Shown here: positions 876 to 14,650 of the stretch, piece by piece
Numbering within the stretch: the first letter of the stretch is position 1
Layout: every line of letters begins with the position of its first letter
Program-made: the position numbers and the translations under genes
The notes under the pieces: generated by a model
Databases searched by the model: none
Told to the model about the DNA's origin: nothing
What the model saw: only the letters and a program-made list of their open reading frames with translations
DNA from: Patescibacteria group bacterium
Lineage (GTDB): Bacteria > Patescibacteriota > Patescibacteriia > 2-01-FULL-39-33
Assembly: GCA_041649575.1 (NCBI GenBank)
Contig: JBAZMW010000002.1
Location: 180,001 to 212,000, forward strand
DNA: 32,000 nucleotides
Reading direction: 5' to 3'

Positions 876-919
876 AAAATAAAACGAGCTGGCCGAATCG
901 TGTTGATTCAGCCAGCTCG
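876..919 (-). terminator. Intrinsic terminator oriented for the minus-strand 165-aa gene
   Basis: Perfect 9-bp stem CGAGCTGGC (885-893) / GCCAGCTCG (911-919) with a 17-nt loop. On the minus strand the stem is followed by TTTTATTTT (884-876); on the plus strand no T-run follows. Confidence 0.75.
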
Positions 920-938
920 GTTGTAGCGTGGTGGCTTA

Positions 939-1436
939 CTATCTGAGGTGTAGAGCTTTCACCTCCGGTCCCTCACCGAAACACTTGCGTCCCGCCGGTG
1001 ACCCCGCAAGAAGCCGCAGACTGCAGGTTCGCTTGGCTTTCTCGACTTCCTCCATCAGGATTTGCAGTACGTAGAGGAGTCGGTCGACCGAGATCAACCT
1101 GGTCTTCAACTGCACACTTTCGGTCTCCACGTCGATACTGCCGACATGTTGCATCCGCCGCGTGACTTGCAGTTTGGGTCTGCGGCCCTCGACGGCTTTG
1201 ACCGCCTCCCGTGTCAAGACGATGACGTCAGAGCAGTTGAACTCCGATTCCCTCAGTCGTCGGCCGAATTCCCGGATGTGTTTTCCGTCCGTGCCGGATT
1301 CGCCATCCGGGTCAGGCATTTCGAACAGGAACATACGCTCCAAGGCTCTCCGCAGGTCATCTCGTGGGTCGATCCCGACGCTCCTCTCTTCTTCCGACAA
1401 CTCTTGTTCTCCCATTTCTGGCTTACCTTTCAGCAT
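939..1436 (-). CDS. Hypothetical 165-aa charged/acidic protein encoded by a GC-rich cassette; no family recognised
   Basis: ATG at 1436 is preceded by GAGGAgcGAGGAaacat (SD 5 nt upstream). It has its own consensus promoter and terminator in the matching orientation. Caveat: three frames are open across this block, so ORF length alone is weak evidence. Confidence 0.55.
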   Translation of the reverse strand: MLKGKPEMGEQELSEEERSVGIDPRDDLRRALERMFLFEMPDPDGESGTDGKHIREFGRRLRESEFNCSDVIVLTREAVKAVEGRRPKLQVTRRMQHVGSIDVETESVQLKTRLISVDRLLYVLQILMEEVEKAKRTCSLRLLAGSPAGRKCFGEGPEVKALHLR

Positions 1437-1505
1437 ATGTTTCCTCGCTCCTCAATGTTTTCCACCATAGTCCTAGCAAGCCACCGTTGCTAAGGTACTA
1501 ATTAT

Positions 1506-1535
1506 ATTATACCCCATAAACCCAAAACTTGTCAA
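1506..1535 (-). promoter_or_regulatory. Sigma70-type promoter TTGACA-N18-TATAAT for the 939-1436 gene
   Basis: The minus strand reads TTGACA (1535-1530), an 18-nt spacer, then TATAAT (1511-1506). The -35 lies 6 nt from the ATG (1541) of the divergent ftsQ-like gene. Confidence 0.7.
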
Positions 1536-1540
1536 GAGAA

Positions 1541-2386
1541 ATGATAGAAGACAAAAACCAATTTAATTACCGGCCGAAAATTCAGGTCAAAAAGGATTAT
1601 TACCGCCAGCGCTTTATCAATCCTTATTTTAATAAGGATAAAAAAAATAAATACCAGGGTTTCAACACCAGATTTTATCTAAAAATTTTAGTGGCGGTTT
1701 TTTTGTTGTACCTGATAGTTTACAGTGATTTATTCAAGATAGGGGAGATAAGCATTTCCGGCACCGATATGATCAGCCAAACCGAATTTCGGCAAATGGT
1801 GGAAAAGGAAATAAATACCTGGCGTTGGCATTTTTGGCCGCAGAGGAACCAGCTTTTGCTTAGTAAAAAACGATTGGCGCAAAAGATCACCAGCCAATAC
1901 AGTCTTAGTAAGCTGGAAATAAAAAAGGGTTGGCGCCGGCTGCAAATCAATCTGGAAGAAAAAATTTCTTACCTGATGGTTTTTAATCGCGGCAAGTTTT
2001 ACTTTACCGACGCCTGGGGCAATGTCACCCGGGAAATTTCTCCGGAGGAAGCCCAAAAATACTGGACCAGATTTCCCATTTTAAACACCGACCAAGAACG
2101 GGTCGATATCGGCAGCCAGATAACTTCCGAAAAAATGGTTAATTTCATTTTGGCTCTCAGTGGAAAGATAAAAGAAATGAAGCTGGCCATCTCTGGCTAC
2201 GAGAGTCGGGGACAGGAGGAAGTGTCTCTGGTGGCCAAAGCCGGCTGGCGGGCTTATTTTGATATTGACTCCGATGTTGCCAAGTCCGTGGAAAACTTGG
2301 AATTGGTACTGAAAGAAAAAATCAAAGACCAGAAAAATTTGCAATATATTGATTTACGTTTCGGCGATAAGATTTATTACAAATAG
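1541..2386 (+). CDS. ftsQ: Cell division protein FtsQ/DivIB-like (single N-terminal TM plus POTRA-like segment)
   Basis: Basic N-terminal tail, TM helix FYLKILVAVFLLYLIVY, then FKIGEISISGTDMISQTEFRQMV, typical of the POTRA start. ATG 1541 is preferred over the TTG at 1529 used by the ORF track. Confidence 0.55.
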   Translation: MIEDKNQFNYRPKIQVKKDYYRQRFINPYFNKDKKNKYQGFNTRFYLKILVAVFLLYLIVYSDLFKIGEISISGTDMISQTEFRQMVEKEINTWRWHFWPQRNQLLLSKKRLAQKITSQYSLSKLEIKKGWRRLQINLEEKISYLMVFNRGKFYFTDAWGNVTREISPEEAQKYWTRFPILNTDQERVDIGSQITSEKMVNFILALSGKIKEMKLAISGYESRGQEEVSLVAKAGWRAYFDIDSDVAKSVENLELVLKEKIKDQKNLQYIDLRFGDKIYYK

Positions 2387-2394
2387 AGGAGTGG

Positions 2395-2430
2395 GGATAA
2401 CTGTAATTGTTTGTTTATCCTTTTTATTTT
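2395..2430 (+). terminator. Probable intrinsic terminator after the ftsQ-like gene
   Basis: GGATAA (2395-2400) pairs with TTATCC (2415-2420) and is followed by TTTTTATTTT (2421-2430). Confidence 0.5.
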
Positions 2431-2488
2431 ATAATACCTTTAATGTCGCATAATATAGCTTAAGCGATAATAAAGCAAGTAATTAATC

Positions 2489-3454
2489 ATGAAGAAATCA
2501 AATCTGCCTATTCTCAGTCAGTTTTCGGACTTTCTGGCCTATTGCGAGGTAGAAAAAGGTCTTAGCCCCATTTCTACCAGAAATTACCACAATTTTTTGA
2601 GAATGTTCGAAGGTTGGCTAAAAATCAAACATTTAACGCAGCTCAAGCCGCATGAGCTCACTCCAGAGCATGTCTGGGACTACCGGCTTTATCTTTCCCG
2701 TCGGCAAGACCGCTCTGGTCGCTATATCAAAAAAACCACTCAAAATTATTATTTAATCGCCCTTAGGAACCTTTTGAACTACTTCGCCGATAAAGATATT
2801 ATCTCTTTGCCTTCAGAAAAAGTTAAATTACCAAAATTAACCGAAAAAGACAAAGCGATAAAGTTTCTAAAGTTTGATCAGATAGAAAAGTTATTACAGG
2901 TGCCGGATGTCACCACTCTTGAAGGCCTAAGGGACAGAACGATTCTCGAAATTCTCTTCTCTACTGGTATGCGGGTTTCGGAGTTAACGTCGCTTAATAT
3001 CAAACAGTTTGATCGCCTAGCTTTACTAAAAAATAATTTTTCTGATCAAGAGTTAAGCATCGCTGGTAAAGGTGGTAGAACAAGAACGGTTTATTTTTCT
3101 CATCGAGCTTTGGGTTGGCTGGCTAGATACTTAAAAAACAGAAACGACCTCTATCCCCCGCTTTTTATTAACTATCGTCCCCATAATGACAGAGATGACG
3201 AGCACCGTTTAACGCCTCGTTCGGTTGAAAGATTGGTAAAAAGACACACCGTGATGGCCGGGTTGCCTGTTGATGCCACGCCGCACACCCTGCGTCATAG
3301 CTATGCCACGGATTTATTGGATCAGGGAGCAGATTTGCGCAGTGTCCAGGAGCTTTTGGGGCATAAAAATATTGTTACCACTCAAATTTATACTCACGTC
3401 ACCAATCAAAAGCTTCGCTCCATTCATAAAAAATTTCATAGTGGCAATCATTGA
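2489..3454 (+). CDS. Tyrosine recombinase, XerC/XerD family
   Basis: N-terminal SAM-like core-binding region (FLAYCEVEKGLSPISTRNY). C-terminal catalytic signature HTLRHSYATDLLDQGADLRSVQELLGHKNIVTTQIYTHV. Confidence 0.9.
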   Translation: MKKSNLPILSQFSDFLAYCEVEKGLSPISTRNYHNFLRMFEGWLKIKHLTQLKPHELTPEHVWDYRLYLSRRQDRSGRYIKKTTQNYYLIALRNLLNYFADKDIISLPSEKVKLPKLTEKDKAIKFLKFDQIEKLLQVPDVTTLEGLRDRTILEILFSTGMRVSELTSLNIKQFDRLALLKNNFSDQELSIAGKGGRTRTVYFSHRALGWLARYLKNRNDLYPPLFINYRPHNDRDDEHRLTPRSVERLVKRHTVMAGLPVDATPHTLRHSYATDLLDQGADLRSVQELLGHKNIVTTQIYTHVTNQKLRSIHKKFHSGNH

Positions 3455-3465
3455 AATAAAAACTA

Positions 3466-3492
3466 CGTCCCGATAACCGGGACGGAGTTTTT
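3466..3492. terminator. Bidirectional intrinsic terminator between the recombinase gene and the Cys-rich mini-ORF
   Basis: CGTCCCG (3466-3472) / CGGGACG (3478-3484) with a 5-nt loop. GAGTTTTT follows on the plus strand and TAGTTTTTATTT on the minus strand. Confidence 0.8.
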
Positions 3493-3515
3493 CAGAGAAT
3501 AAAATCGTCTTTTGT

Positions 3516-3644
3516 TTATTCTTTCTCTTTGCAACCGCAGCCGCAACCGGCCCCGCAGGAACAGCAATGAAAACAAACCTCCGGCTCGCAGGAACAGCGG
3601 GTTTCTTCGTCTATGGGCATCTCGCATTTAGCGCATTTATCCAT
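3516..3644 (-). CDS. Unannotated 42-aa cysteine-rich mini-protein (12 Cys): MDKCAKCEMPIDEETRCSCEPEVCFHCCSCGAGCGCGCKEKE
   Basis: Hand translation of the minus strand from ATG at 3644 to TAA at 3518-3516. It is below the ORF-track length cutoff and lies 40 nt downstream of, and co-directional with, the M23 gene. A possible TTGCCT-N16-TATTAT promoter overlaps the M23 stop. No SD is present. Confidence 0.5.
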   Translation of the reverse strand: MDKCAKCEMPIDEETRCSCEPEVCFHCCSCGAGCGCGCKEKE

Positions 3645-3683
3645 AAAATTTGGTTAATTATTTAATAATATCTAATTTCTAGT

Positions 3684-4937
3684 TTAAGGCAAGTAGGTCG
3701 AGGGGCTGACTGGGATGCCATTAGAGCGCACCTCGAAATGTAAATGGGGACCGGTAGAAAATCCCGTGTTGCCGCTGTAACCGATAATTTGTCCTTTGGT
3801 GACATATTGATCACCTTTAACATTAATACTGCTTAAATGGCCATATAGAGTCGAGAGATTGTTGTTATGAATGATCATGACGTAGGTGCCATACCAGCGG
3901 GTGTTGGCGGCTACTTTGGCCACATAGCCGGATTCGGCCGCTTTTACTGGTGTGCCGATTTTGGCCGCTAGGTCGATTCCCGAATGTTCAAAGAGATTAC
4001 GAAACGGGTAATCGGGATCATGAAAATAACAAGTAATCCGGGGATTGTTAATGGGCCAGATCAAAGCGGCTTCTCCCAGAGAATTAAATTTTTCCTGACT
4101 CCCCTTTTTTTCCAGCTCTTGTCGAATTTTTCTTTCCAAGGCGGCGATTTGATTATTGGCCGCCGTTTGTTCTTTTTTGAGATCGGTAATCAGGTTTTGA
4201 AATTTGACCTCCGATTTTTTGGTCTCGACAATCAGATACTGTTTGGCGCCCTTTTGTTCGCCCAGCGCCGTCTTTTCCTGTTCCAGCTTGTTTAGCAAGT
4301 CTGAAAGTTGATCGCGTTCGCCGTTTAATTTTTCTTTTTGCTTGTTCAAAGTTTCTACCAGTTCTTGCACGCGGTTCAGGGTTTTTTGTAAATCACCTTC
4401 TATATTTTCCAAAGCTTTTACCTGATCGAAAAATTCCGAAAAAGAATTGTTGCTTAGTAAAACAAAAAGATAATTTTTGTCGTCATAATGATCGAGAGCG
4501 CGGATAAAAGCGGCCAGCCGTTCCTTGTCTTTATTGATCATCAGCTCATTTTCTTTGATTTTCAGGCCGATTTTTTCTATTTCCAGTTCGGTTGATTTAA
4601 TCTCCTCTTCTTTGGCGGTGATGTCTAGTCCCATTTTGGCGATCTGATTATCCAAAATATAAACTTGATTTTTAAAGTTGGCCGCTTGGCCCTGGGCTTT
4701 TTTGATGCTGTCTTTGTGCTTGTTTATCTCCTCGGCTAATTTGTCTATTTTTTCCTGTTGGGCTTCAATTTGCTTGTTTAAATTGGCTATCAAAGCTTCA
4801 TTAGAGCCGGAGTCGCCAGCTGTCTCTTGCGCTCGCCCTATTTCTCTGGACATCAAAAAAACACCGCCAAAAATAATTAACGGCATCAAAATTGACGCTA
4901 AAATATGATATTTTAGCTTTTTCAGTTCGGCAAGCAT
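3684..4937 (-). CDS. M23 family metallopeptidase with long N-terminal coiled coil (EnvC-like peptidoglycan hydrolase/activator)
   Basis: N-terminal TM, about 250 aa of heptad-like E/K/Q-rich sequence, then a C-terminal M23 domain with HSGIDLAA, YGHL and GPHLHFEV motifs. Confidence 0.9.
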   Translation of the reverse strand: MLAELKKLKYHILASILMPLIIFGGVFLMSREIGRAQETAGDSGSNEALIANLNKQIEAQQEKIDKLAEEINKHKDSIKKAQGQAANFKNQVYILDNQIAKMGLDITAKEEEIKSTELEIEKIGLKIKENELMINKDKERLAAFIRALDHYDDKNYLFVLLSNNSFSEFFDQVKALENIEGDLQKTLNRVQELVETLNKQKEKLNGERDQLSDLLNKLEQEKTALGEQKGAKQYLIVETKKSEVKFQNLITDLKKEQTAANNQIAALERKIRQELEKKGSQEKFNSLGEAALIWPINNPRITCYFHDPDYPFRNLFEHSGIDLAAKIGTPVKAAESGYVAKVAANTRWYGTYVMIIHNNNLSTLYGHLSSINVKGDQYVTKGQIIGYSGNTGFSTGPHLHFEVRSNGIPVSPSTYLP

Positions 4938-4986
4938 GGAAAGAAGATTATTTTAATCTTATTCTACAAGAATTATATAACAATTC

Positions 4987-5015
4987 TTGACAAAAATCAA
5001 TCTCAAAGCTATTAT
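4987..5015 (+). promoter_or_regulatory. Sigma70-type promoter TTGACA-N17-TATTAT for the 87-aa zinc-ribbon gene
   Basis: TTGACA at 4987-4992, a 17-nt spacer, TATTAT at 5010-5015, located in the AT-rich spacer. Confidence 0.65.
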
Positions 5016-5070
5016 TTTTATTAAGTTGTCCTTTGGCTTTTGGTGAAGTTTCAACAACGGAGGGAGAAAC

Positions 5071-5334
5071 ATGGGACTCGTCGCTCCTGACACTCGCGGC
5101 AACGCGTGCTGGCTGATTAAATGCAACAACTGCGGCCATCAGGCGGCTTGGGATGGCTCCAATGCCGAGCAAACCCTTAGCCTGGCCGAGAATGATGGTT
5201 GGACGGTAACTCGAGGCAAGGGCCCAGGTGAGGTGGTCGCTCTGTGCCCCGAATGCAGGAAGAAACAACAGAAAGTCACTCCAGCCGCCATTGTCAGCCT
5301 GATGGATTTCCGCCAAGCATTGCCCAGGCGGTGA
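5071..5334 (+). CDS. Hypothetical 87-aa protein with a four-cysteine zinc-ribbon-like arrangement (CNNC...CPEC); GC-rich cassette gene
   Basis: ATG 5071 is preceded by GGAGGGAG (5059-5066). Cys pairs C18-x2-C21 and C59-x2-C62. It has its own promoter and downstream hairpin. Confidence 0.6.
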   Translation: MGLVAPDTRGNACWLIKCNNCGHQAAWDGSNAEQTLSLAENDGWTVTRGKGPGEVVALCPECRKKQQKVTPAAIVSLMDFRQALPRR

Positions 5335-5374
5335 GCCGCGGGAGGTTTCCGAGATTCCCAACGTCAAAGGTTTC

Positions 5375-5413
5375 AAGGCTTGGACCGAGCGCGGTTCAAG
5401 CCTTTTCTGTCTT
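5375..5413 (+). terminator. Stem-loop plus T-rich tail after the zinc-ribbon gene; overlaps the gltX stop codon
   Basis: AAGGCTTG (5375-5382) / CAAGCCTT (5397-5404) followed by TTCTGTCTTT. The right arm contains the last codons and stop of convergent gltX. Confidence 0.55.
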
Positions 5414-6904
5414 TAAGCGCTCCAGCGCTTGCCTGATTCTTAGTAAACTTTTTTCTGGTCCCAAAATTTCCGCCACCTCAAACGGCGTTGGCGATTTTTC
5501 CATTCCCGTCAGCGCCACTCTCATCGGCCACAGCACTTCGCCGTTGGTCAGATTGTTTTTAGTGATAAAAGTTTTTAATTTATTTTCCAATACTCCCCTT
5601 TCCCAGTCGCTGGCAGAATATTTTTCCAACTCCTGCAAAGTTAATTGCAAATTTTTTTTAGCCGCTTCCGCGCTAGATTTTTTCCAGACCAGCAAGCTCG
5701 GGTTATAACTTAGCTCAGCGGTAAAGAAAAAATTTATCCTCCCCCCTACTTCGTTCAAGCGGCTAACCCTTTCTTGTTCTAGTTTTAGTATTTTTTCCAA
5801 ATCCAAATCAGTTGGCATTTGACCGACATTCTTTTCCAAATACGGCTTGGCTAGTTGGGCAAATTTAGTATTGGTCAGTTTCTTAAGGTATTCGCCATTG
5901 AGCCAGTCTAGTTTGGCTAGATCAAAAATGGCTCCGGCCTTGTGCACCTTGGCCAGAGAAAAAGCCTGAATAAGTTCTGGCAGGAGAAAAATTTCTTGTT
6001 CAGTGCCCGGATTCCAACCCAAAAGCGCCACAAAATTTAGGAGCGCTTCCGGCAAATAGCCTTTGTCGCGGTAATCCTCCACCGCCACGTCGCCTTGTCG
6101 TTTGGACAGTTTGCTGCGGTCGGCGTTTAAGATCAGAGGCAAATGGGCAAACAGCGGCGGCGTCCAGCCCAAAAATTTGTACAACAATAAATGCTTTGGC
6201 GTCGAAGACAGCCACTCTTCGCCGCGAATGACATGGGAGATTTTCATCAGATGGTCGTCAACCACCGAAGCCAAGTGATAAGTCGGAAAGCCATCGGCTT
6301 TCAAGATCACTTGGTCGTCTATTTCCCGGCTACGAAATTTTATTTCGCCGCGAATCAAATCATTAAAAACCACTTCTTGATTTTCCGGCACCTTCATTCT
6401 GATGGTGTATTTTTCGCCGGCCGCCAACTTATTTTGCACTTCATCTGGCAACAGATGGCGGCAATGCCAATCATATCTGGTTGGCTGTTTGGCGGCCTCT
6501 TGCTGTCGGCGTAAATTTTCTAACCTTTCCTCACTGCAGAAGCAATAATAGGCCAAACCCTTATTTACTAGCTCGGAGGCGTATTTCTGATAGATTTCGA
6601 GCCTTTTAGACTGCGTGTAGGGCCCAAAATGGCCTTTTTCAACGGCTTTTCCGGCTTTATCGAGTATTACGCCCTCGTCGGGTTTTAGGCTCGCCCAAGC
6701 CAAATTTTTGAGCAAATTTTCTACCGCCCCCGGCACTTCCCTGGTTTGGTCGGTATCTTCGATTCTCAGCACAAAAGACCCTTTATTTTGTTTGGCAAAA
6801 ATATAGGCATAGAGCGCGGTGCGTAGTCCCCCGACATGCAAATAGCCAGTCGGACTCGGCGCAAAGCGGGTGCGGACCTTTAATTTGTTTAGAAAAGAAA
6901 ACAT
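5396..6904 (-). CDS. gltX: Glutamyl-tRNA synthetase
   Basis: Class I motifs RFAPSPTGYLHVGGLRTALY (HIGH-type) and KLSKRQG (KMSKS-type); 502 aa. Confidence 0.95.
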   Translation of the reverse strand: MFSFLNKLKVRTRFAPSPTGYLHVGGLRTALYAYIFAKQNKGSFVLRIEDTDQTREVPGAVENLLKNLAWASLKPDEGVILDKAGKAVEKGHFGPYTQSKRLEIYQKYASELVNKGLAYYCFCSEERLENLRRQQEAAKQPTRYDWHCRHLLPDEVQNKLAAGEKYTIRMKVPENQEVVFNDLIRGEIKFRSREIDDQVILKADGFPTYHLASVVDDHLMKISHVIRGEEWLSSTPKHLLLYKFLGWTPPLFAHLPLILNADRSKLSKRQGDVAVEDYRDKGYLPEALLNFVALLGWNPGTEQEIFLLPELIQAFSLAKVHKAGAIFDLAKLDWLNGEYLKKLTNTKFAQLAKPYLEKNVGQMPTDLDLEKILKLEQERVSRLNEVGGRINFFFTAELSYNPSLLVWKKSSAEAAKKNLQLTLQELEKYSASDWERGVLENKLKTFITKNNLTNGEVLWPMRVALTGMEKSPTPFEVAEILGPEKSLLRIRQALERLKTEKA

Positions 6905-6907
6905 AAA

Positions 6908-7777
6908 TTATTTTTTCTTTACCACCAGCCACCCAAATTTAATGGTGGCATTATAAATCCTACTTAACCGGCGCGGTTCTTGGATTAGCCGATATAGCCA
7001 TTCTAACCCCAATCGCCTCAAAAATAAAGGCGCGCGTCTCACCTGTCCCGACAAAAAATCAAAAGTCCCGCCGACGCCAATCGCCACTTTAATTTTTGGC
7101 ACTTTGGCTAAGTTGTCTCTGATCCACTTCTCCTGCCTCACTTGCGGCAAGGCCACCAACAGAATATTGGCTTCGCTGGCATTAATTTTTTCCAGCACCT
7201 GATTGTTGTTTTCAAATTGCCAACATTTGTTTTCTATGGGATCCCCACGGCCGGCTTCGCCGGCCTCGGGATGACATTGTAGAAGCGGCCCGCCTTGGTC
7301 AAAGCCAGCCACTTTGCCAATATATTTTTCTGCCACTTGTTTTGCCGCTCCTTCTTTTCCGCCCAGTAAATAAATTTTATAAATGTCATTGCGAGGGAGC
7401 GCGAGCGACCGTCCGCCTAGGCTCGGCGAGACTGGTGGCAATCCCGTGGGATCACCGCGTTGCCCGGTCATTTGACCGGGCTCCTCGGGATGACAACTTA
7501 GAAGTGCCTCTATTAGATCCACGCCCGTCACTCTCTCTAATTTTTCTTGTTTTAAAAATTTAGCCGCCCAAACCAGCCCAGCGCCATCGCAGGTGGCCAA
7601 ATCAGCATTATTTAAAATATTTCTGAAAACTTCGTCTTTTTGCGCCGCCACCACAAATTCCGGATTAATCGTCACCACCTGCCTTTGGCCTTCCGCTGTC
7701 AGCCATTTTTTAATTAACTTCAAGGCTTCTGGCAAATTGACCTGATCGATTTTTATTCCCAGTATTTCTATTTTCAT
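6908..7777 (-). CDS. WecG/TagA/CpsF-family glycosyltransferase (GT26) carrying two in-frame GC-rich insertions
   Basis: Family-typical segments VVTINPEFVV, DLATCDGAGLVWA, IYLLGGKEG, ILLVALPQVRQEKW, AIGVGGTFDF and LEWLYRL. About 45-50 extra residues come from the repeats at 7238-7288 and 7384-7507. Confidence 0.8.
   Translation of the reverse strand: MKIEILGIKIDQVNLPEALKLIKKWLTAEGQRQVVTINPEFVVAAQKDEVFRNILNNADLATCDGAGLVWAAKFLKQEKLERVTGVDLIEALLSCHPEEPGQMTGQRGDPTGLPPVSPSLGGRSLALPRNDIYKIYLLGGKEGAAKQVAEKYIGKVAGFDQGGPLLQCHPEAGEAGRGDPIENKCWQFENNNQVLEKINASEANILLVALPQVRQEKWIRDNLAKVPKIKVAIGVGGTFDFLSGQVRRAPLFLRRLGLEWLYRLIQEPRRLSRIYNATIKFGWLVVKKK
7238..7288. repeat. GC-rich palindromic element, short copy, in frame inside the GT26 gene
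   Basis: GGGATCCCCACG + hairpin GGCCGGC-ttc-GCCGGCC + CTCGGGATGACAttgTAGAAG. It shares its ends with 7448-7507 and translates (minus strand) as LLQCHPEAGEAGRGDP. Confidence 0.7.
7384..7507. mobile_element. MITE-like GC-rich palindromic element, in frame inside the GT26 gene
   Basis: Imperfect terminal inverted repeats TGTCATTGCGAGG (7384-7396) and CCTCGGGATGACA (7483-7495). Internal hairpin CCCGGTCAtttGACCGGG. Translates (minus strand) as LLSCHPEEPGQMTGQRGDPTGLPPVSPSLGGRSLALPRNDI. Confidence 0.65.
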
Positions 7778-7780
7778 AAG

Positions 7781-8437: not shown

Positions 8438-8483
8438 TATTTCCTGGCTAATTTTATTATATTCTAGCAAATACCAGCCTTTT

Positions 8484-8512: not shown

Positions 8513-8518
8513 AAAAGT

Positions 8519-8725
8519 GGTTCATTTCCTCGAGACCCGAACTGGTCATTTGGGTCTCACCGCTCCGGTGGGGAAGCGAAACCAGCGCCTTCGCTTCCCC
8601 TCTGGCTTAACCAAAGCACCTTGGTAGCACTTCCCGGGTCTACTGAAAGCCGCATCCAGGCAAGCATTAGACCCGTTCCCGCTGTGGCGGCCGATGGCAT
8701 CAGTCATCAGCCGTCCTTTTTGTTT
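8519..8725 (+). ncRNA. Candidate structured ncRNA of about 205 nt, family not recognised
   Basis: Bounded by the promoter above and a hairpin plus T-run (GATGGC 8693-8698 / GCCGTC 8710-8715, then CTTTTTGTTT). Perfect stems: GAGACCC/GGGTCTC (8532-8538/8552-8558), GGGGAAGCGAA/TTCGCTTCCCC (8570-8580/8590-8600) and CGGGTCTA/TAGACCCG (8635-8642/8668-8675). No SD-preceded start codon. Confidence 0.5.
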
Positions 8726-8732
8726 ATCCACA
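8724..8732 (+). promoter_or_regulatory. Perfect TTATCCACA 9-mer (DnaA-box consensus), copy 1; part of a shared promoter-upstream motif
   Basis: Exact TTATCCACA, 31 nt upstream of the -10 hexamer of unit 2. The context TTATCCACAGtTAaaTATTTAT resembles the copy at 9120. Confidence 0.5.
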
Positions 8733-8760
8733 GTTAAATATTTATAACCAAAGAAATCTT

Positions 8761-8769
8761 TGCTATAAT
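8761..8769 (+). promoter_or_regulatory. Extended -10 promoter element TGcTATAAT (unit 2)
   Basis: TGCTATAAT at 8761-8769, with a weak -35-like TTTATA 17 nt upstream. Confidence 0.5.
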
Positions 8770-8775
8770 AAAATC

Positions 8776-9108
8776 ACATTGGACATGGGGCTTGTCAAAT
8801 GGCCCTGCAACCAGTCCGAACGGAGAACGAGCCATGAGAACAAAGACAACGAAGCGAGCAGCAGTGGGCGTGATGGTCGATGGCACCGGCGGAACAGCGT
8901 ACTTGGCGACGTCCTGACCTAACGAGAACGGTCGGACTGGGCGTCAAAGAAGTTCTCCGAGACGCTTGACTCAACCCAAGCGTCTCGCCGCACCTTAACT
9001 CTCCTCGGAGAGTTGTGACTATAGGTTTTCACGCTTTGACAAAGCGTGGACATCCCCCTAAGGTGAGCAGTCGGTTGCTGACAGGTAGCCGACTCTCTTT
9101 TTGTTTTT
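8776..9108 (+). ncRNA. Candidate transcript of about 330 nt: structured RNA and/or mRNA for a 27-aa peptide; family not recognised
   Basis: Strong terminator: 10-bp stem 9069-9078 / 9085-9094 (two G-U pairs), then CTCTTTTTGTTTTT. Long-range stem CCAGTCCGA (8811-8819) / TCGGACTGG (8932-8940). Hairpins GAGACGCTTG/CAAGCGTCTC (8959-8968/8977-8986), AACTCTC-ctcg-GAGAGTT (8997-9014) and CACGCTTT-gac-AAAGCGTG (9030-9048). Confidence 0.5.
8834..8917 (+). CDS. Possible 27-aa small ORF MRTKTTKRAAVGVMVDGTGGTAYLATS inside unit 2
   Basis: ATG 8834 with GGAG (8822-8825) 8 nt upstream; hand translated; enclosed by the 8811/8932 long-range stem. No other support. Confidence 0.3.
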   Translation: MRTKTTKRAAVGVMVDGTGGTAYLATS

Positions 9109-9119
9109 AAAAAATTTAG

Positions 9120-9128
9120 TTATCCACA
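9120..9128 (+). promoter_or_regulatory. Perfect TTATCCACA 9-mer, copy 2
   Basis: Exact TTATCCACA, 30 nt upstream of the -10 hexamer of unit 3, in the same orientation and relative position as copy 1. Confidence 0.5.
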
Positions 9129-9158
9129 GGTACTATTTATTTCTTTAAAAAATAGTTA

Positions 9159-9164
9159 TATAAT
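9159..9164 (+). promoter_or_regulatory. -10 hexamer TATAAT (unit 3, secreted-protein gene)
   Basis: TATAAT at 9159-9164 in an AT-rich stretch directly after the unit 2 terminator. The -35 is weak (TTTATT-like). Confidence 0.45.
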
Positions 9165-9253
9165 GAAAGTGCGGAAGGTATTTACGATAGCGTACAACCG
9201 AAGCAGGCCATCGGCCAAACGATCGGCCAAACGAAAGAAAGGTGGGACGGAAG

Positions 9254-9745
9254 ATGAGAAAGTTCGTGTTTTGTACGGTAGTACTGGCGTTCGCGTTTGT
9301 GATGATTCCGGCGACGAATACTCCGGCATACGCGACGCAACTCGATCAAGGCAAGGCAGTGGCGACGGCTCCGACGACGATGGGGACGACGCAGCAGGAC
9401 GTGCAGACGGCGATGAAGAGCAACCTGGTCCTCGACGGCACCGGGCAGAAAGTCGCTGAAGTGATGAAGGCGCCGACTCTTGACTCCGGACGAGTGATTG
9501 CGCAGACGGCGACGACGAAGACGGCACGCGAAGAGCAGACGAAGATCACGGCGAAGAGTGACACGGTTGTAACGGCGAAGATCGAAGCGCAAGGCATGGG
9601 CGAGCAGATGGCAGCGGCTGGCGAAGATGACGCTGGCACGATCATCGTGGCGACGAAGAGTGACACCTATGCGACGAGAATCGAGGGCCGTATCGCTCAC
9701 GACGCGGACGCGACCTTCAATGCGAACGTTCTGATCATCGGCTAA
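9254..9745 (+). CDS. Hypothetical secreted protein of about 163 aa, Thr/Ala/Lys/Gln-rich with an internal repeat; GC-rich cassette gene
   Basis: Signal peptide MRKFVFCTVVLAFAFVMIPATNTPAYA|TQ (basic n-region, hydrophobic core, AYA site). AGGTGGG lies 10 nt upstream of ATG 9254 (the track starts at GTG 9242). Repeat AKSDTVVTAKIE / TKSDTYATRIE. G/C-ending codons predominate. Confidence 0.7.
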   Translation: MRKFVFCTVVLAFAFVMIPATNTPAYATQLDQGKAVATAPTTMGTTQQDVQTAMKSNLVLDGTGQKVAEVMKAPTLDSGRVIAQTATTKTAREEQTKITAKSDTVVTAKIEAQGMGEQMAAAGEDDAGTIIVATKSDTYATRIEGRIAHDADATFNANVLIIG

Positions 9746-9830
9746 CCACGCGGGCAGCGCCGAAAGTCAGAACGAGTAGTACCTTGGATACACAACCGAT
9801 ACCGGCCAACAGTCGGATCGGCCACCTCCA

Positions 9831-9874
9831 GAGTTGGGTCAGCTGGCAACGGCGACCCTCTCTTTTTTTGTTTT
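9831..9874 (+). terminator. Intrinsic terminator of unit 3
   Basis: GGGTC (9836-9840) / GACCC (9854-9858), extended by GAG/CTC across a small internal loop, followed by TCTTTTTTTGTTTT. Confidence 0.6.
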
Positions 9875-9882
9875 GAAAAAAT

Positions 9883-9911
9883 TTGCCAAAATTTTATAAA
9901 TTTTTTATACT
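9883..9911 (+). promoter_or_regulatory. Sigma70-type promoter TTGCCA-N17-TATACT (unit 4)
   Basis: TTGCCA at 9883-9888, a 17-nt spacer, TATACT at 9906-9911. Confidence 0.6.
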
Positions 9912-9917
9912 ATAAGC

Positions 9918-10242
9918 AAGCGGTTCCTGCTGTGGGAACCGTGCACATTGGGTCAACGGGTCAACCGGAGGGTACAAGCAATATGAAAAAGGAAATGAGA
10001 GCGCAGGGTTTGGTCGTGGCGAAATGGAAGTAGGCTAGACCGTAGCAAGGCAACTTAGCGTTGTTGGGCGGAGGCCCCAACTAACAGTGGGCCTCCGCTG
10101 AATCTTTCCCTCGCTTGAGCGGGGTGCTGGTATATCCTTCTCTGAAGGGGTTCCCCCGTTGGGAAGTGTTGCCCATTCAACGCCTCCTGACCGCACAGGC
10201 TGCAATTTGTCGCAAGACGAAGGGCAGCCTGAATTATTTTTT
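9918..10242 (+). ncRNA. Structured RNA of about 325 nt directly upstream of amrS: stand-alone ncRNA or cis-regulatory leader ending in a terminator
   Basis: Stems CGGTTCC/GGAACCG (9921-9927/9935-9941) and GCGGAGGCCC/GGGCCTCCGC (10068-10077/10089-10098). Terminator CAGGCTGC/GCAGCCTG (10196-10203/10224-10231), then AATTATTTTTT. It ends 25 nt before the amrS ATG. Confidence 0.5.
9983..10033 (+). CDS. Possible 16-codon upstream ORF MKKEMRAQGLVVAKWK inside unit 4
   Basis: ATG 9983 with GGAGGG (9967-9972) 10 nt upstream; hand translated; no other support. Confidence 0.3.
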   Translation: MKKEMRAQGLVVAKWK

Positions 10243-10267
10243 GCTATACTTAATTTATACTGAATTT

Positions 10268-11143
10268 ATGAGAGCAGCCAAATTTTACAAAAAATCAGGG
10301 GCTAATGTTAAATGTCAGCTTTGTCGGCATTTTTGTCTGATTGCCCCAGCCAAGTTCGGCCTCTGCGGCATGAGGAAGAATATCGACGGCCGGCTTTATT
10401 CTCTTAATTACGGTAAAATCATTGCCAGCCAGATTGACCCGATCGAAAAAAAACCGCTCTATCATTTTTTGCCAGGCAGTTTTGCTTATTCTTTGGCTTG
10501 CCCCGGCTGTAATTTTAAATGCCTTAATTGCCAAAATTCCGATCTTTCCCAAATCACCCCGGCTTTACAAAAGGCCGTTGATTCTTTGCCGGAAACCAGG
10601 CCGGAAGAGATTGTCGAGGCGGCCTGGGAAAACAATTGCCCGTCAATCGCTTATACCTATACCGAGCCCACCATTTTTGCCGAGTTTGCTCTCGACTGCA
10701 TGGAGCTGGCCAGAGACAGTAATCTAAAAAATATCTGGGTTTCCAATGGCTATCTGTCGCCCGGTTGTCTGGAGGCCATCAGCCCCTATCTTGACGCCAT
10801 TAATATTGATTTGAAATTTTTTAGCGATAAAAATTATCAAAAAATTTGCGGCGCTCGCCTAAAACCAGTCTTGGATAATCTGGTTGCTTTTAAAACAGCC
10901 AAAATTCATTTGGAAATCACCACTTTAATCATTCCCTCACTTAATGATAGCGATGAAGAGTTAACCGCTCTGGCAGAGTTTATTTATCAAAAATTGGGCG
11001 ACGACACGCCCTGGCATCTGGGCGCCTTTCACCCCGCTTACAAATTAAAAAATTTACCGGCTACGCCGACAGAAACCATCAAGCGGGCCCAGGCAATCGG
11101 GAAAAATATCGGCCTGAAATATGTTTATCCGGGAAATGTTTGA
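10268..11143 (+). CDS. amrS: AmmeMemoRadiSam-system-type radical SAM enzyme (PflA-like activase fold)
   Basis: N-terminal Cys cluster VKCQLCRHFCLI..GLCGMR, DPIEKKPLYHFLPG, and the radical SAM CxxxCxxC motif in CPGCNFKCLNCQN. ATG 10268 is preferred: the track's TTG 10115 extension reads through RNA hairpins and a terminator. Confidence 0.85.
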   Translation: MRAAKFYKKSGANVKCQLCRHFCLIAPAKFGLCGMRKNIDGRLYSLNYGKIIASQIDPIEKKPLYHFLPGSFAYSLACPGCNFKCLNCQNSDLSQITPALQKAVDSLPETRPEEIVEAAWENNCPSIAYTYTEPTIFAEFALDCMELARDSNLKNIWVSNGYLSPGCLEAISPYLDAINIDLKFFSDKNYQKICGARLKPVLDNLVAFKTAKIHLEITTLIIPSLNDSDEELTALAEFIYQKLGDDTPWHLGAFHPAYKLKNLPATPTETIKRAQAIGKNIGLKYVYPGNV

Positions 11144-11239
11144 CTCTAATTTAAACCGGATTGTTTTTTTGGCTGTCTTAACGCCTGAATTTTTGTTATA
11201 ATGATTTATGGTGCATGAAAGATTAGTAAACAAAATTAA

Positions 11240-12595
11240 ATGAGAAAAAACTACCAATTAGCGGTATTATTTTGTTTTTTGCTTTTTTTGCTTTTACCCT
11301 TTACGGTTGGGGCGGCCGATTTCGATCCCGATTATCTGATTTCTGATACCGAATTGGCCAATCACAATTCTTTGGACCTGTCTGATATTCAAAGATTTTT
11401 GGACAAAAGAAATGGCACGCTCAAGGGTTATGTCACCCTTGATAAAGAAGGCAACCTAAAAACCGCCGTCCAGGCTTTTTTCGAGGTGGCGCAGAAGTGG
11501 CTGATCAACCCCAAATATTTGTTGGTGTTGGTACAAAAAGAGCAAAGCTTACTCGAAGATACCAATCCCTCCCAGGGCCAATATGACCGCGCTACCGGTT
11601 ATGGTTGTCCCGATACCGGCGGTTGCGACGACCGCTGGAAGGGCTTCTATCGCCAGGTAAATTCCGCCGCGGCTCAAACCCGCTATTATCTGGACAATAT
11701 TAATGAGTTTACTTATCAGCCGGGAAAGGCCTATAATATTGACGGGCAGTCTGTCACTCCCAAAAACACCGCCACCGCCGGTTTGTACAATTATACCCCC
11801 CATCTTCACGGCAATCAGAATTTCTGGAACCTTTGGAACCAGTATTTTGGCAAAAAATGGCCTAATGGCGCCCTGTTGCAAGCCGAAGGCGACGCTAGCA
11901 AGGTTTATTTGATTGAAAACGAAGAAAAACGCGAAATTATATCCAAAGCGGTTTTTGCCTCCCGCTTCGACAGTAAAAAAATAATCACTGTCGGCCAGGA
12001 AGATCTGGATTCTTATGACTCTGGCGTGCCCATAAAATACCTCAATTTTTCCCTGCTTAAAAGCAGCCGCGGCGACATTTACATGATCGTTGACGACCAA
12101 AAAAGAAAAATTGCCAGTCAGGAAGTTTTCAAAAAAATCGGTTTTATGGAAGATGAGGTGATTCCGGCGGATGACAGCGAGCTGGGCCTTTATAAAGACG
12201 GTCCCGAGATTACCAGCTATACCCTTTATCCCGCCGGGACGCTTTTGCAAGACAGCCAGACTAAACAAATTTTTTATGTCATCAGCGGCAAGAAGCGGCC
12301 AATAATCAATAAAGAAATCCTGGCTTTTAATTTTAACGGCTTGCCGGTCAAAAAAGTTTCTCCCGTCGAACTGGAATCGTACCGCTCTGGCAATCCCGTC
12401 ACCTTGCCCGATGGTGAACTGGTCAAAATCAAGGGAGCCAATACGGTTTACGTGATTTCCAATGGCAAACGTCTGCCGATTTTCAACGCCAAGATTTTCG
12501 AAAAAATGAATTATAAATGGACTAACGTCAAAACCGTTTCCAAAGAGACCCTGGAAGTTCATGAGCTGGGTCAAACCATCACCGGCGATTGGTAA
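11240..12595 (+). CDS. Secreted hypothetical protein (451 aa) with four C-terminal tandem repeats of about 55 aa
   Basis: Signal peptide MRKNYQLAVLFCFLLFLLLPFTVGAADF. Repeats begin KVYLIENEEKREI, DIYMIVDDQKRKI, QIFYVISGKKRPI and TVYVISNGKRLPI. Confidence 0.8.
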   Translation: MRKNYQLAVLFCFLLFLLLPFTVGAADFDPDYLISDTELANHNSLDLSDIQRFLDKRNGTLKGYVTLDKEGNLKTAVQAFFEVAQKWLINPKYLLVLVQKEQSLLEDTNPSQGQYDRATGYGCPDTGGCDDRWKGFYRQVNSAAAQTRYYLDNINEFTYQPGKAYNIDGQSVTPKNTATAGLYNYTPHLHGNQNFWNLWNQYFGKKWPNGALLQAEGDASKVYLIENEEKREIISKAVFASRFDSKKIITVGQEDLDSYDSGVPIKYLNFSLLKSSRGDIYMIVDDQKRKIASQEVFKKIGFMEDEVIPADDSELGLYKDGPEITSYTLYPAGTLLQDSQTKQIFYVISGKKRPIINKEILAFNFNGLPVKKVSPVELESYRSGNPVTLPDGELVKIKGANTVYVISNGKRLPIFNAKIFEKMNYKWTNVKTVSKETLEVHELGQTITGDW

Positions 12596-12624
12596 AGATT
12601 GCTATCTAAATTAATCAAAAACAT

Positions 12625-13416
12625 ATGTCTCTAGTTTTCGCGGCCATTGTGCCGCATCCGCCAATTCTCATACCCACCATTGGCAAAGAAAATTTGGAAA
12701 AGATACAAAAAACCCAAAAAGCCATGGAGCGTTTGGAGCAAGACCTTTATGCTTCCAAACCAGACATTCTAATCATAATTTCCCCTCATGGCGAAGTTCA
12801 GCATGATTTTTTTACCATCAACTTGTCTAATCAGTACCAAATTAGTTTTAACGACTTCGGCGATTTTGCCACCAAATTAGAAACCGGTGGCGACACTATC
12901 CTTATCTCGGTCAATAAAGAAAAAATCAACAGCCGCTCCCCTATCAATATTATTTCCGAGCCTAACTTGGACCACGGAATTGGCGTCCCTTTTTATTATT
13001 TGGGCCAACACCTCAAGGAAACCAAGCTGATCCCGATTTATTTTTCTTTGCTGGATAATTTGGCTCATTTGGAATTCGGCAAAAATCTGAAAGAGGCCAT
13101 TATGGGCACCGAAAAAAGAGTGGCCGTGGTGGCTTCCGGCGATTTGTCGCACTGCCTGACCGAAAACGCGCCAGCGCCTTTTAGTCCGGCTGGCAAAGAA
13201 TTTGATGAAAAATTAATCGCTTTGCTCAAAAATGGCGATACCCAGGGGGTGATTAATCTGGAACCAAAATTCATCGAAAGCGCCGCCGAATGCGGCCTGC
13301 GTTCGATTTTAATTCTTTTGGGAGTTTTGAATAACATTAGCTTTCAATCGGAAATCTTGAGTTATGAGGCGCCTTTCGGCGTCGGCTACCTGGTGGCGAA
13401 TTTCAAATTGGAATAA
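12625..13416 (+). CDS. LigB/Memo-superfamily protein (class III extradiol dioxygenase-like); possible AmrB-type partner of the radical SAM enzyme
   Basis: N-terminus FAAIVPHPPILIPTIG, then ISPHGEV, DHGIGVP and ASGDLSH motifs typical of the LigB-type fold. Confidence 0.6.
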   Translation: MSLVFAAIVPHPPILIPTIGKENLEKIQKTQKAMERLEQDLYASKPDILIIISPHGEVQHDFFTINLSNQYQISFNDFGDFATKLETGGDTILISVNKEKINSRSPINIISEPNLDHGIGVPFYYLGQHLKETKLIPIYFSLLDNLAHLEFGKNLKEAIMGTEKRVAVVASGDLSHCLTENAPAPFSPAGKEFDEKLIALLKNGDTQGVINLEPKFIESAAECGLRSILILLGVLNNISFQSEILSYEAPFGVGYLVANFKLE

Positions 13417-13430
13417 AGATTAATTTTTTA

Positions 13431-13457
13431 AAACCGCCCTCGTTGGCGGTTTTTTTA
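13431..13457. terminator. Bidirectional intrinsic terminator
   Basis: AAACCGCC-ctcgtt-GGCGGTTT flanked by an A-run and a T-run, lying between convergent genes. Confidence 0.8.
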
Positions 13458-13715
13458 TTTGTCTGCCAGTACTTTAAAAAAATATTTCCACCTCTCTTTT
13501 TGCGCCAGTTCCTTGGTCTCGTTTAAGGCTCTCTCTATTATAATCTGGTTATTTTCTTTGCAAACCTTAAAAACAGAATTCCGCTTAAAAGCCGGCACGC
13601 CCAGCTCCTTGATTATTTTTAGAGCCAGTTCTTGCCATTGGTAAGCGGGCGGCTTTTTTGACTGCCGATTGGTAAAAATATCACTTAATGATTGAAGTCC
13701 TTTATTGTCTTTCAT
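13455..13715 (-). CDS. Hypothetical 86-aa protein
   Basis: ATG at 13715 is preferred over the TTG at 13769 used by the track. No family recognised. Confidence 0.45.
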   Translation of the reverse strand: MKDNKGLQSLSDIFTNRQSKKPPAYQWQELALKIIKELGVPAFKRNSVFKVCKENNQIIIERALNETKELAQKERWKYFFKVLADK

Positions 13716-13803
13716 ACCTAAGGAATTGTAATGGGATTTCTTTAAAAAGTTAAGAGGTGCGAAAATCAAGTAATATTTTGCACCTCGTTTTTATTTAAAA
13801 AAA

Positions 13804-13833
13804 TTGACAAAACTTAGTATAAATTAATATAAT
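13804..13833 (+). promoter_or_regulatory. Sigma70-type promoter TTGACA-N18-TATAAT upstream of def
   Basis: TTGACA at 13804-13809 and TATAAT at 13828-13833. Confidence 0.6.
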
Positions 13834-13854
13834 ATAAAAAACTTAAATAAATTC

Positions 13855-14313
13855 ATGCTTCAAATACTAACCAATCCCAATCCAATTTTGCGCCAAAAAT
13901 CAGTCTTGGTCGCCGATTTTACTAATGAAGAAGTCCAGAAACTGGTGCCGGAAATGGCCGAGACTATGCTCAAAAAAGACGGGCTCGGTCTGGCCGCGCC
14001 ACAAATTGGTAAAAATATCAGATTGATAGTAGTGAGCCATAAGGATGGTGTTTTGGCTCTGTTTAACCCAAAAATTATTAAAAAATCTTGGTTTAAAGAA
14101 TGGGGCGAAGAGGGTTGTTTGTCTCTGCCGGATAAATACGGCGAAGTCAAACGTCATAAGAATATAACTGTAAAATTCGATGATACCACAGGCAAATCAG
14201 AATGTTTGGAAGCCAAGGGTTTATTGGCCAGAGTAATTCAGCATGAAATCGACCACTTGGACGGAGTTTTGTTTATTGATAAAGCTAGAAAAATCGTAAA
14301 TATCGACAAATAA
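13855..14313 (+). CDS. def: Peptide deformylase
   Basis: Three canonical motifs: GLGLAAPQIG, EGCLS and QHEIDHLDG. Confidence 0.95.
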   Translation: MLQILTNPNPILRQKSVLVADFTNEEVQKLVPEMAETMLKKDGLGLAAPQIGKNIRLIVVSHKDGVLALFNPKIIKKSWFKEWGEEGCLSLPDKYGEVKRHKNITVKFDDTTGKSECLEAKGLLARVIQHEIDHLDGVLFIDKARKIVNIDK

Positions 14314-14347
14314 AACACGAAGAACGGGCACCGGTTGGCACCCGTTC
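14311..14347 (-). terminator. Intrinsic terminator for the minus-strand small membrane protein gene
   Basis: GAACGGG (14322-14328) / CCCGTTC (14341-14347). On the minus strand the stem is followed by TTCGTGTTTTA; no T-run follows on the plus strand. Confidence 0.6.
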
Positions 14348-14378
14348 GGTTCCACAGAACAAACTCACGTCGCCTTGA

Positions 14379-14579
14379 TCACGCTGGCTCCAGCAGTCTG
14401 AAGCATATCATCATGCCGATGAAGCAACAGGCCGCCACAACCATTAAGCGCTCGATTCTCCTTTCCCAACCATGCCTCATGTTTTCATAGACGAGTGGGA
14501 TCGCAAAGCCGGAGAATAAGCCAATTAGGCCAAGAACCACCATGACCACTAGCAATGCACCGTGATATGCGGTAAACAT
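14379..14579 (-). CDS. Hypothetical 66-aa two-TM membrane protein; GC-richer cassette gene antisense between def and fmt
   Basis: ATG 14579 with AGGAGGG (14594-14588) 8 nt upstream. Two hydrophobic helices (ALLVVMVVLGLIGLFSGFAIPLV and LMVVAACCFIGMMICF) separated by the charged loop YENMRHGWERRIER. Confidence 0.65.
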   Translation of the reverse strand: MFTAYHGALLVVMVVLGLIGLFSGFAIPLVYENMRHGWERRIERLMVVAACCFIGMMICFRLLEPA

Positions 14580-14621
14580 GTCCAAGACCCTCCTGTGTCT
14601 GTTGAAATTGTGCTTGTCAAA

Positions 14622-14650
14622 AACATACCATTAAAATTTACAAATGTCAA
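14622..14650 (-). promoter_or_regulatory. Sigma70-type promoter TTGACA-N17-TATGTT for the small membrane protein gene; the -35 overlaps the fmt start codon
   Basis: The minus strand reads TTGACA (14650-14645), a 17-nt spacer, then TATGTT (14627-14622). The fmt ATG is at 14644-14646. Confidence 0.5.

Follow-up and report, generated by a model that had tools for sequence, protein, structure and literature searches.

Autonomous GC-rich units between housekeeping genes of a Patescibacteria chromosome, and a case for long-lived slots with fast-evolving cargo

Wedged between the housekeeping genes of a Patescibacteria chromosome are several compact, GC-rich units that carry promoters and terminators of their own. 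The window analysed here is a stretch of 32,000 nucleotides (nt) with a guanine-plus-cytosine (GC) content of 0.43, and is part of a 235-kb contig of a metagenome-assembled genome (locus tags WC518_, ENA sample ERZ27247363). A first-pass annotation of its sequence had described such blocks at four gene junctions, serS|ftsQ-like, M23|gltX, hypothetical|amrS and def|fmt, and had compared them to phage morons; that observation is confirmed, and the interpretation placed on it is partly supported. The four junctions do hold self-contained units, since near-consensus promoters, Shine-Dalgarno (SD) sequences and terminators were all located. The third block, earlier treated as one, proved to consist of four separate units, only one of which (c3) has a convincing open reading frame (ORF). 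The seven monocistronic units comprise four protein-coding candidates (c1 to c4, lengths in amino acids, aa) and three hairpin-rich transcripts (3a, 3b and 3d/e), and are laid out as follows.

876-1535, block at serS|ftsQ: GC 0.54, GC-rich body 0.56.
885-919, bidirectional hairpin terminator of serS (+ strand) and c1 (- strand): 15-bp stem with 9 G-C pairs, T-run on the minus strand; an 18-nt inverted repeat lies at the same positions.
939-1436, - strand, c1: 165-aa cytoplasmic ORFan candidate, antisense to serS and the ftsQ-like gene, SD GAGGAG upstream of ATG.
1506-1535, - strand, c1 promoter: TTGACA-18-TATAAT, 12/12 matches, its -35 hexamer 6 nt from the ftsQ-like start codon.
4987-5413, block at gltX|M23: GC 0.53, body 0.58.
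4972-5015, divergent promoter patch: M23 promoter at 5000-4972 (- strand) and c2 promoter at 4987-5015 (+ strand, TTGACA-17-TATTAT), the c2 -35 hexamer overlapping the M23 -35 region.
5071-5334, + strand, c2: 87-aa candidate with two CxxC motifs of zinc-ribbon type, antisense to gltX and M23, GC 0.59, SD GGAGGGAG.
5375-5404, c2 terminator: 13-bp stem plus T-run; it overlaps the stop codon of gltX (5396-5398).
8484-10262, block 3, between the hypothetical genes hyp229 and hyp451: GC 0.52, bodies 0.54-0.58.
8484-8722, + strand, unit 3a: promoter 8484-8512, TTGCAA-17-TATAAT, 10/12 matches with a TG extension; transcript of ~200 nt.
8741-9103, + strand, unit 3b: promoter 8741-8769, TTTATA-17-TATAAT; transcript of ~330 nt, terminator 9069-9094.
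9254-9745, + strand, c3: 163-aa secreted ORFan candidate with a Sec-type signal peptide ending in AYA, GC 0.59; promoter -10 hexamer TATAAT at 9159-9164, hairpin and T-run terminator at ~9838-9870.
9883-10246, + strand, unit 3d/e: promoter 9883-9911, TTGCCA-17-TATACT; hairpin-rich transcript of ~330 nt ending in a hairpin and T-run just before amrS.
14311-14650, block at def|fmt: GC 0.48, body 0.52.
14322-14347, terminator hairpin of def and c4: 11-bp stem with 7 G-C pairs.
14379-14579, - strand, c4: 66-aa small membrane protein candidate with two hydrophobic helices, antisense to def and fmt, SD AGGAGG.
14622-14650, - strand, c4 promoter: TTGACA-17-TATGTT with a TG extension, its -35 hexamer within fmt codons 1-3.

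A consensus scan of the first 16 kb placed the best promoter matches at the edges of these units and terminators made of a hairpin and a T-run at their opposite ends, with 52 promoter-like sites in 1-16000 against 23.2 ± 5.2 in shuffled sequence. Each of c1 to c4 has its SD sequence at the correct spacing from the start, and the ORF fills the unit from promoter to terminator. A common layout links c1, c2 and c4, which are antisense to both of their co-directional neighbours, converge with the upstream gene at a shared hairpin terminator and start from a near-consensus sigma-70 promoter within a short stretch of AT-rich DNA abutting the downstream essential gene. For c2 and c4, this stretch also holds a second, weaker promoter-like site that is divergent and faces the downstream gene; the start of fmt reads ATGTCAAAA.

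Base composition separates most of these genes from their surroundings. Against 43 host genes taken from 50 kb of the same contig (GC 0.418 ± 0.040, maximum 0.474), c1, c2 and c3 have GC contents of 0.572 (z 3.9), 0.587 (z 4.2) and 0.591 (z 4.4), and c4 has 0.502 (z 2.1). GC at third codon positions (GC3) is 0.68, 0.64, 0.74 and 0.61 for c1 to c4 compared with 0.46 ± 0.07 in the host, and the z-scores of codon-usage fit are -4.3, -1.7, -8.0 and -3.7. Host codon usage would predict GC contents of 0.50, 0.55, 0.52 and 0.49 for the four proteins, where 0.57, 0.59, 0.59 and 0.50 are observed and the host mean is 0.43; about half of the excess comes from synonymous choice and about half from amino-acid composition. 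The order GC3 > GC1 > GC2 is found in c1 (0.64, 0.40 and 0.68 at positions 1, 2 and 3), c2 and c4, and GC3 is also the highest in c3, which uses ACG for 20 of its 25 threonines and GCG for 18 of its 27 alanines where the host prefers ACC and GCC. The earlier claim of atypical composition thus holds for the blocks of c1, c2 and c3, which lie outside the host distribution, and is weak for the def|fmt block, whose GC of 0.48 is matched or exceeded by 15% of windows of the same length; c4 is only mildly atypical in composition. Ten of the eleven 60-nt counts given with that claim were reproduced exactly, the remaining sample (25001-25060) containing 22 G+C and not 19.

The history of the junctions was followed in related genomes. 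The chromosome is Buchananbacteria/Falkowbacteria-like; the nearest GltX proteins among 5.8 billion sequences are 62-69% identical and are labelled Patescibacteria, Buchananbacteria or Falkowbacteria. Every window protein tested was a singleton at 90% identity clustering, and close relatives are therefore absent from the collections. Syntenic loci were recovered from ten relatives (L001, L083, L084 and L166-L172), and the comparison of tight junctions at gltX|M23 also cites L002 and L010. Gaps of 4-24 nt separate serS and ftsQ in L001 and L084, where the flanks abut, gaps of 26-70 nt separate gltX and M23 in L002, L010, L084, L166, L167 and L169, and def and fmt are -10 to +36 nt apart in 10 of 10 relatives. 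These tight junctions show that the blocks are not core genes; presence/absence variation was seen at the junctions, no unit is a conserved core gene and all of them are ORFans.

At serS|ftsQ, five other relatives (L083, L166, L167, L169 and L172) each have one ORF, 91-177 codons long, in the c1 orientation. In L083, L166, L167 and L172 it lies behind a TTGACA-type promoter adjoining the ftsQ start, and in 5/5 it is followed by a hairpin at the serS stop. This cargo is GC-rich in four of the five, by 11 to 15 points, with values of 0.57 against 0.42 in L166, 0.56 against 0.41 in L167, 0.53 against 0.39 in L169 and 0.48 against 0.37 in L172. Over 21 kb of L166 and L167, GC islands of at least 500 nt above two standard deviations occur only at serS|ftsQ and hyp451|hyp229, and the main GC island of L169 is likewise at serS|ftsQ. 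The cargo proteins show no mutual homology by phmmer or hhalign except for the L166 and L167 pair.

A comparable arrangement is found at gltX|M23, where L168, L170 (in two copies) and L171 encode a small CxxC...GWT...CPxC protein on the c2 strand. Alignment of c2 with this same-slot family by hhalign gave an E-value of 9.5e-5 and a probability of 59%, and only four further members of the family exist among 5.8 billion proteins. The window, L168, L170 and L171 have an identical divergent promoter core, TATAACA...TTGACAAA, and the M23 promoter is conserved in L083 too; it is also the sole similarity between the DNA of the blocks and that of the relatives. The family relation within the slot, together with the invariant promoter core, suggests that c2 is probably a resident, very diverged ortholog of which only the GC content is peculiar to the window lineage. 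At both junctions the units of the relatives are antisense to their two neighbours, as in the window. At least two of the junctions, serS|ftsQ and gltX|M23, hence appear from these alignments to be conserved slots that are old in the clade.

The hyp229|hyp451 junction is probably an old slot as well, on weaker support. It forms a divergent intergenic region of ~0.7-2.8 kb in several genomes, with cargo that is unrelated from one to the next: an immunoglobulin (Ig)-domain secreted protein in L166 (6126-7358, GC 0.60), an IS110-type transposase in L167 (5930-7285, Pfam Transposase_20, GC 0.53) and two small RNA-like units in L083. The Ig gene and the transposase were inserted there independently. 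Only the window and L172 have amrS between hyp229 and hyp451; elsewhere its partner amrB stays and amrS is not at the junction. By contrast, c4 looks to be a clear lineage-specific insertion, the sole such case among the four, because def|fmt is tight in all ten relatives. The proposal that the blocks were independently acquired therefore fails for at least two, and probably three, of the four junctions, whose slots are conserved and which are not sites of independent recent acquisition.

The alternative wording of that proposal, that the units are independently maintained, fits better, and the serS|ftsQ gene of L166 and L167 shows why. While the neighbouring proteins of these two genomes are 78-93% identical, their slot proteins align end to end at only 29%, with nucleotide identities of 0.49, 0.59 and 0.35 at codon positions 1, 2 and 3. 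This order of conservation (2 > 1 > 3) indicates a real protein under weak purifying selection. Four-fold degenerate sites of the neighbours are saturated (0.33-0.58 identity), yet GC3 of the slot gene is 0.58-0.66 in both lineages. Because GC3 has been kept while synonymous sites were randomised, the locus must have maintained its high GC, which does not mark a recent donor.

Two maintaining forces are consistent with the data. The first would be selection for strongly folded, stable mRNA. The c1 mRNA has a fold z-score of -5.5 with pairing between its 5′ and 3′ ends, and the serS|ftsQ transcripts of the relatives range from -1.8 to -4.2, compared with a mean of -0.2 (standard deviation 1.7) for host controls; the c3 mRNA has a z-score of -0.2. 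The second would be GC-biased gene conversion at recombination-prone slots (concept in PMC4450053). The described cases resemble the present one in a local rise of GC3 over an AT-rich background at loci likely to recombine, and differ in size, as the effect here is far larger (GC3 0.61-0.74 vs 0.46) and confined to single small genes.

Taken together, these results favour the view, to which we assign a probability of roughly 0.55, that the blocks are long-lived, fast-evolving, GC-rich accessory units in permissive slots between housekeeping genes, with cargo that diverges or is replaced. On this view the seven autonomous units would be spread over a small number of such slots with conserved housekeeping genes on either side, the cargo of a slot would evolve very fast or be replaced, and high GC would be something that the locus maintains and no trace left by recent transfer. 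The proteins c1 to c4 are presumably made, and their roles would be accessory, relating to the cell surface, to regulation or to conflicts with other organisms.

Several observations weigh against this explanation. No homology between c1 and the serS|ftsQ cargo of the relatives was detected by phmmer or hhalign, so that replacement and hyper-divergence cannot be told apart in the window. The homology of c2 is moderate only, at 59% probability, and was missed by a local hidden Markov model search. Neither c3 nor c4 has a counterpart anywhere, c4 not having been part of the large protein-database searches, and the sharply foreign codon signature of c3 fits acquisition better than evolution in place; a foreign origin of c3 and c4 is a fair reading. 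The GC effect is not universal, as the same-slot genes of L170, L171 and L083 are enriched by only 1 to 5 points, and the fold controls are noisy, one host gene segment reaching -4.8. Finally, with nearest relatives at no more than 69% GltX identity, gains, losses and replacements are undatable.

Among known systems, phage morons (Juhala/Hendrix; reviewed in PMC3594210) resemble these units in having their own promoter and terminator, a composition unlike that of their neighbours and a position between genes that are adjacent in related genomes. The moron-like reading holds in that the units are autonomous, atypical and absent from some relatives with abutting flanks, and fails for want of a phage setting or phage hits: the 50 kb of contig contain housekeeping genes only, with no phage gene, and there were no PHROG matches. 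Three of the four defining features are thus present, and the one lacking is a phage setting with spread by transfer. No sign of horizontal spread and no homologs in other contexts were found here, and, unlike in morons, the cargo diverges at a position and behind a promoter that genera have in common, and high GC persists for long.

A closer match than morons is offered by replacement-type flexible genomic islands, or islets, and core hotspots (PMC4033161; PMC10250203), which likewise occupy the same place between conserved core genes with contents that differ or diverge, as at serS|ftsQ, gltX|M23 and hyp229|hyp451. Here, however, the unit is a single gene of 66-177 codons and not a multi-gene island, comes with a built-in consensus promoter and bidirectional terminator, lies antisense within former operon-like pairs and carries GC-rich cargo, and the comparison spans genera, not strains. 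An integron cassette is an ORF lacking a promoter, with an attC site behind it and an intI integrase and attI site nearby; the present units differ, as they have their own promoters and share no repeat family, and the only recombinase is a syntenic Xer-like core gene. No transposase domain or terminal repeats were found in the blocks, which thus do not qualify as insertion sequences or transposons.

The best surviving rival, which we consider unlikely but in no way negligible, is that the units are recent, independent horizontal acquisitions from a GC-richer donor (phage, plasmid, host or other bacterium) that have not yet drifted to the recipient composition. Such an origin would account for GC and codon usage outside the host range and for the ACG and GCG preference of c3, unlike that of the host; c4 must have been inserted, since def|fmt is tight in 10/10 relatives, and the IS110-type transposase of L167 and the Ig gene of L166 show that GC-rich DNA does enter hyp451|hyp229. 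Against it, no homolog of c1 or c3 was found among billions of proteins, and viral, phage and plasmid collections gave no match for the units. Exhaustive protein-database searches took in c1 (1.84 billion representative proteins, no credible match), the c2 family and c3 (5.8 billion proteins, c3 matching only itself). The check for boundaries or repeats common to the cassettes found none, nor are there mobility genes in the blocks. The slots and promoters of c1 and c2 are conserved across genera, the only relatives of c2 occupy the same slot, and the L166/L167 slot gene is still GC-rich after synonymous saturation.

Decidedly less probable is the proposal that the GC-rich bodies are structured non-coding RNAs and that the ORFs are incidental. 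Units 3a, 3b and 3d/e do lack a convincing ORF and fold more strongly than shuffled sequence (z-scores of -5.0, -2.65 and -3.4), the c1 transcript has its z-score of -5.5 and paired ends, and GC-rich intergenic regions are an established route to structured RNAs (PMC6429828, PMC8723152). Unit 3a is a chain of strong hairpins with a minimum free energy of -85.7 kcal/mol, and 3b and 3d/e contain ORFs of only 27 codons (8834-8917) and 16 codons (9983-10033), respectively. Like the published GC-rich intergenic candidates (PMC6429828, PMC11109978), the three would be GC-rich, hairpin-dense, ORF-poor and independently transcribed in an AT-rich genome; they differ in having no Rfam match or homologs and stems that are mostly perfect hairpins, and four of the seven units look protein-coding. 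For c1 to c4, correctly spaced SD sequences, ORFs spanning promoter to terminator and the codon-type distribution of GC over positions all speak for translation, as do the canonical signal peptide of c3, the two hydrophobic helices of c4 and the 2 > 1 > 3 conservation of the L166/L167 slot gene; at 57% GC, ORFs of 140-177 codons are not likely to arise by chance.

Searches for known RNAs point the same way. A scan of the window and five loci at Rfam 15 gathering thresholds returned nothing but tRNAs, the sole match in the window being tRNA-Gln at 31105-31177, and all matches of 8400-10350 in an E-value scan had E > 1, far under the gathering thresholds. ARAGORN found no transfer-messenger RNA (tmRNA). 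RNase P, signal recognition particle, 6S and tmRNA, considered as GC-rich housekeeping RNAs of thermophile style, were rejected for lack of an Rfam signal. Since no homologous sequences of 3a, 3b and 3d/e were found, their fold z-scores are single-sequence values.

A more far-reaching form of the slot explanation is about as doubtful as the RNA proposal: a clade with conserved expression slots, each a consensus promoter plus bidirectional terminator, whose cargo is kept hypervariable and GC-rich by a locus-specific process. That process might be an exchange of cassettes between genomes that occur together, or recombination coupled to GC-biased conversion at the slots. If true, such slots would keep supplying otherwise streamlined genomes with new small proteins for surface, regulatory or conflict roles.

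Very improbable is a derivation from a mobile element or prophage, for example of IS110 type, that formerly extended over the region and of which the blocks would be the decayed remains. IS110-type elements lack terminal repeats, one such transposase sits in the hyp451|hyp229 junction of L167, and a tyrosine recombinase gene is present at 2489-3454. The earlier statement that no integrase, transposase or terminal repeats were seen needs amending for this last gene and stands for transposases and terminal repeats in the blocks. The Xer-like recombinase is, however, core and syntenic in all relatives, with 66-73% identity in those where it was aligned; tblastn of the L167 transposase, the Ig protein and all ORFs of the relatives, their cargo included, found no remnants in the blocks, nor were frameshifted transposase or phage gene fragments found there, the housekeeping genes between the blocks keep a conserved order and no repeats are common to the blocks. 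An assembly chimera or contamination, conceivable because the source is a metagenome-assembled genome, can be dismissed, as contigs of a second sample (SRR8542065) spanning c1, c2 and their flanks show 0 mismatches over 7016 nt with the window, which excludes a chimera, and coherent promoters and terminators join the units to host genes.

Patescibacteria have small, streamlined genomes in which most lineage-specific genes are unexplained. The slot explanation would mean that some of these genes are placed non-randomly, in a few fixed, strongly promoted, insulated positions between essential genes, where they diverge about as fast as proteins can and yet stay 10-15 points above the genome in GC. 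If general, this would provide a positional rule for finding fast-evolving accessory genes, likely at the interface with hosts or phages, and an unusually clean natural case in which local GC is held against an AT-biased background by mRNA-structure selection or biased gene conversion. It also cautions that atypical GC together with a private promoter and terminator is not by itself proof of recent horizontal transfer.

At hyp229|hyp451 the cargo is accompanied by a short module made of a box and a promoter.

8724-8732, + strand, TTATCCACA box: DnaA-box consensus, shortly before the unit 3b promoter.
9120-9128, + strand, second TTATCCACA box: upstream of the c3 promoter.

These are the only two exact copies in 50 kb, and each lies a few bases past a terminator and 6-15 nt upstream of the -35 hexamer of a strong promoter. 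Box and promoter recur in L083 (8205-8213), L166 (8477-8485) and L167 (8271-8279), and the box is absent from relatives with a tight hyp229|hyp451 junction; the unit 3b promoter and start-site string TATAATAAAATCAC is common to L083. The box TTATCCACAG may be a candidate regulator site through which DnaA or another factor controls the units. A replication origin at 8.5-10.3 kb was considered and set aside, as there are only two boxes, each next to a promoter, and no switch in GC skew.

Individual candidates have features of their own. Against Pfam, PHROGs, PADLOC and NCBIfam, c1 to c4 gave only sub-threshold zinc-ribbon or hydrophobic noise. The one weak match of c1, P0011 (E 6e-4), falls on a periplasmic segment that is repeated in an MMPL transporter and is regarded as spurious. 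In the predicted fold of the c1 mRNA (885-1500, - strand), the 5′ untranslated region GGUGGCUUGCUA pairs just past the stop codon with UAGUAAGCCACC, closing the entire mRNA, which recalls the fold-back of stable toxin mRNAs; c1, however, is 165 aa long. An AlphaFold2 (AF2) model of c2 reached a pLDDT of 69 and had no fold match in the PDB. For c4, with its 66 aa and two hydrophobic helices, a type I toxin-antitoxin system was considered, in which a small hydrophobic toxin is paired with an overlapping antisense RNA that has a promoter of its own. The only promoter-like site on the opposite strand (14602-14631) faces fmt, with a predicted transcript that does not overlap the c4 mRNA, and PADLOC and Pfam gave no match.

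The leader of c3 (9200-9235) contains a 12-nt tandem duplication in which atcggccaaacg occurs twice, and its coding region (9300-9700) is rich in GAC, ACG and GCG triplets, so that the other frames read poly-Arg or poly-Asp; the repeats hint that c3 might have originated by triplet-repeat expansion. A fifth small gene, not called previously, lies in the gap between M23 and xer: a 42-aa Cys-rich ORF at 3516-3644 (- strand, GC 0.52) with the sequence MDKCAKCEMPIDEETRCSCEPEVCFHCCSCGAGCGCGCKEKE. Members of its small family occupy this junction in L083, L084, L166, L167, L170 and L171 as well; the ORF is 4-13 points above genomic GC in each genome and has a metallothionein-like look.

Neighbouring genes add a few observations. 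The amrS gene (10268-11143) has no SD sequence and a TATACT hexamer 6 nt before its ATG, so a leaderless transcript is possible. At the position of serS (1-865) two types of the gene occur, one 78-79% identical to that of the window (L001, L083 and L168) and the other 36-37% identical (L084, L166, L167 and L169), which suggests that an essential gene may have been replaced in place by a foreign version. In L166 the xer gene is inverted, with an HNH endonuclease gene alongside (14379-14867). Further along the window, 21451-29373 holds a cluster for a branched-chain-type ATP-binding cassette (ABC) transporter with four paralogous periplasmic binding-protein genes, to which the window owes its longest direct-repeat families (D1, D2, D10, D11 and D13). 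Upstream of the window, two hypothetical genes (-6660 to -6169 and -1430 to -864) are AT-rich, with GC contents of 0.29 and 0.33 compared with 0.42, so the genome also has compositional outliers in the opposite direction.

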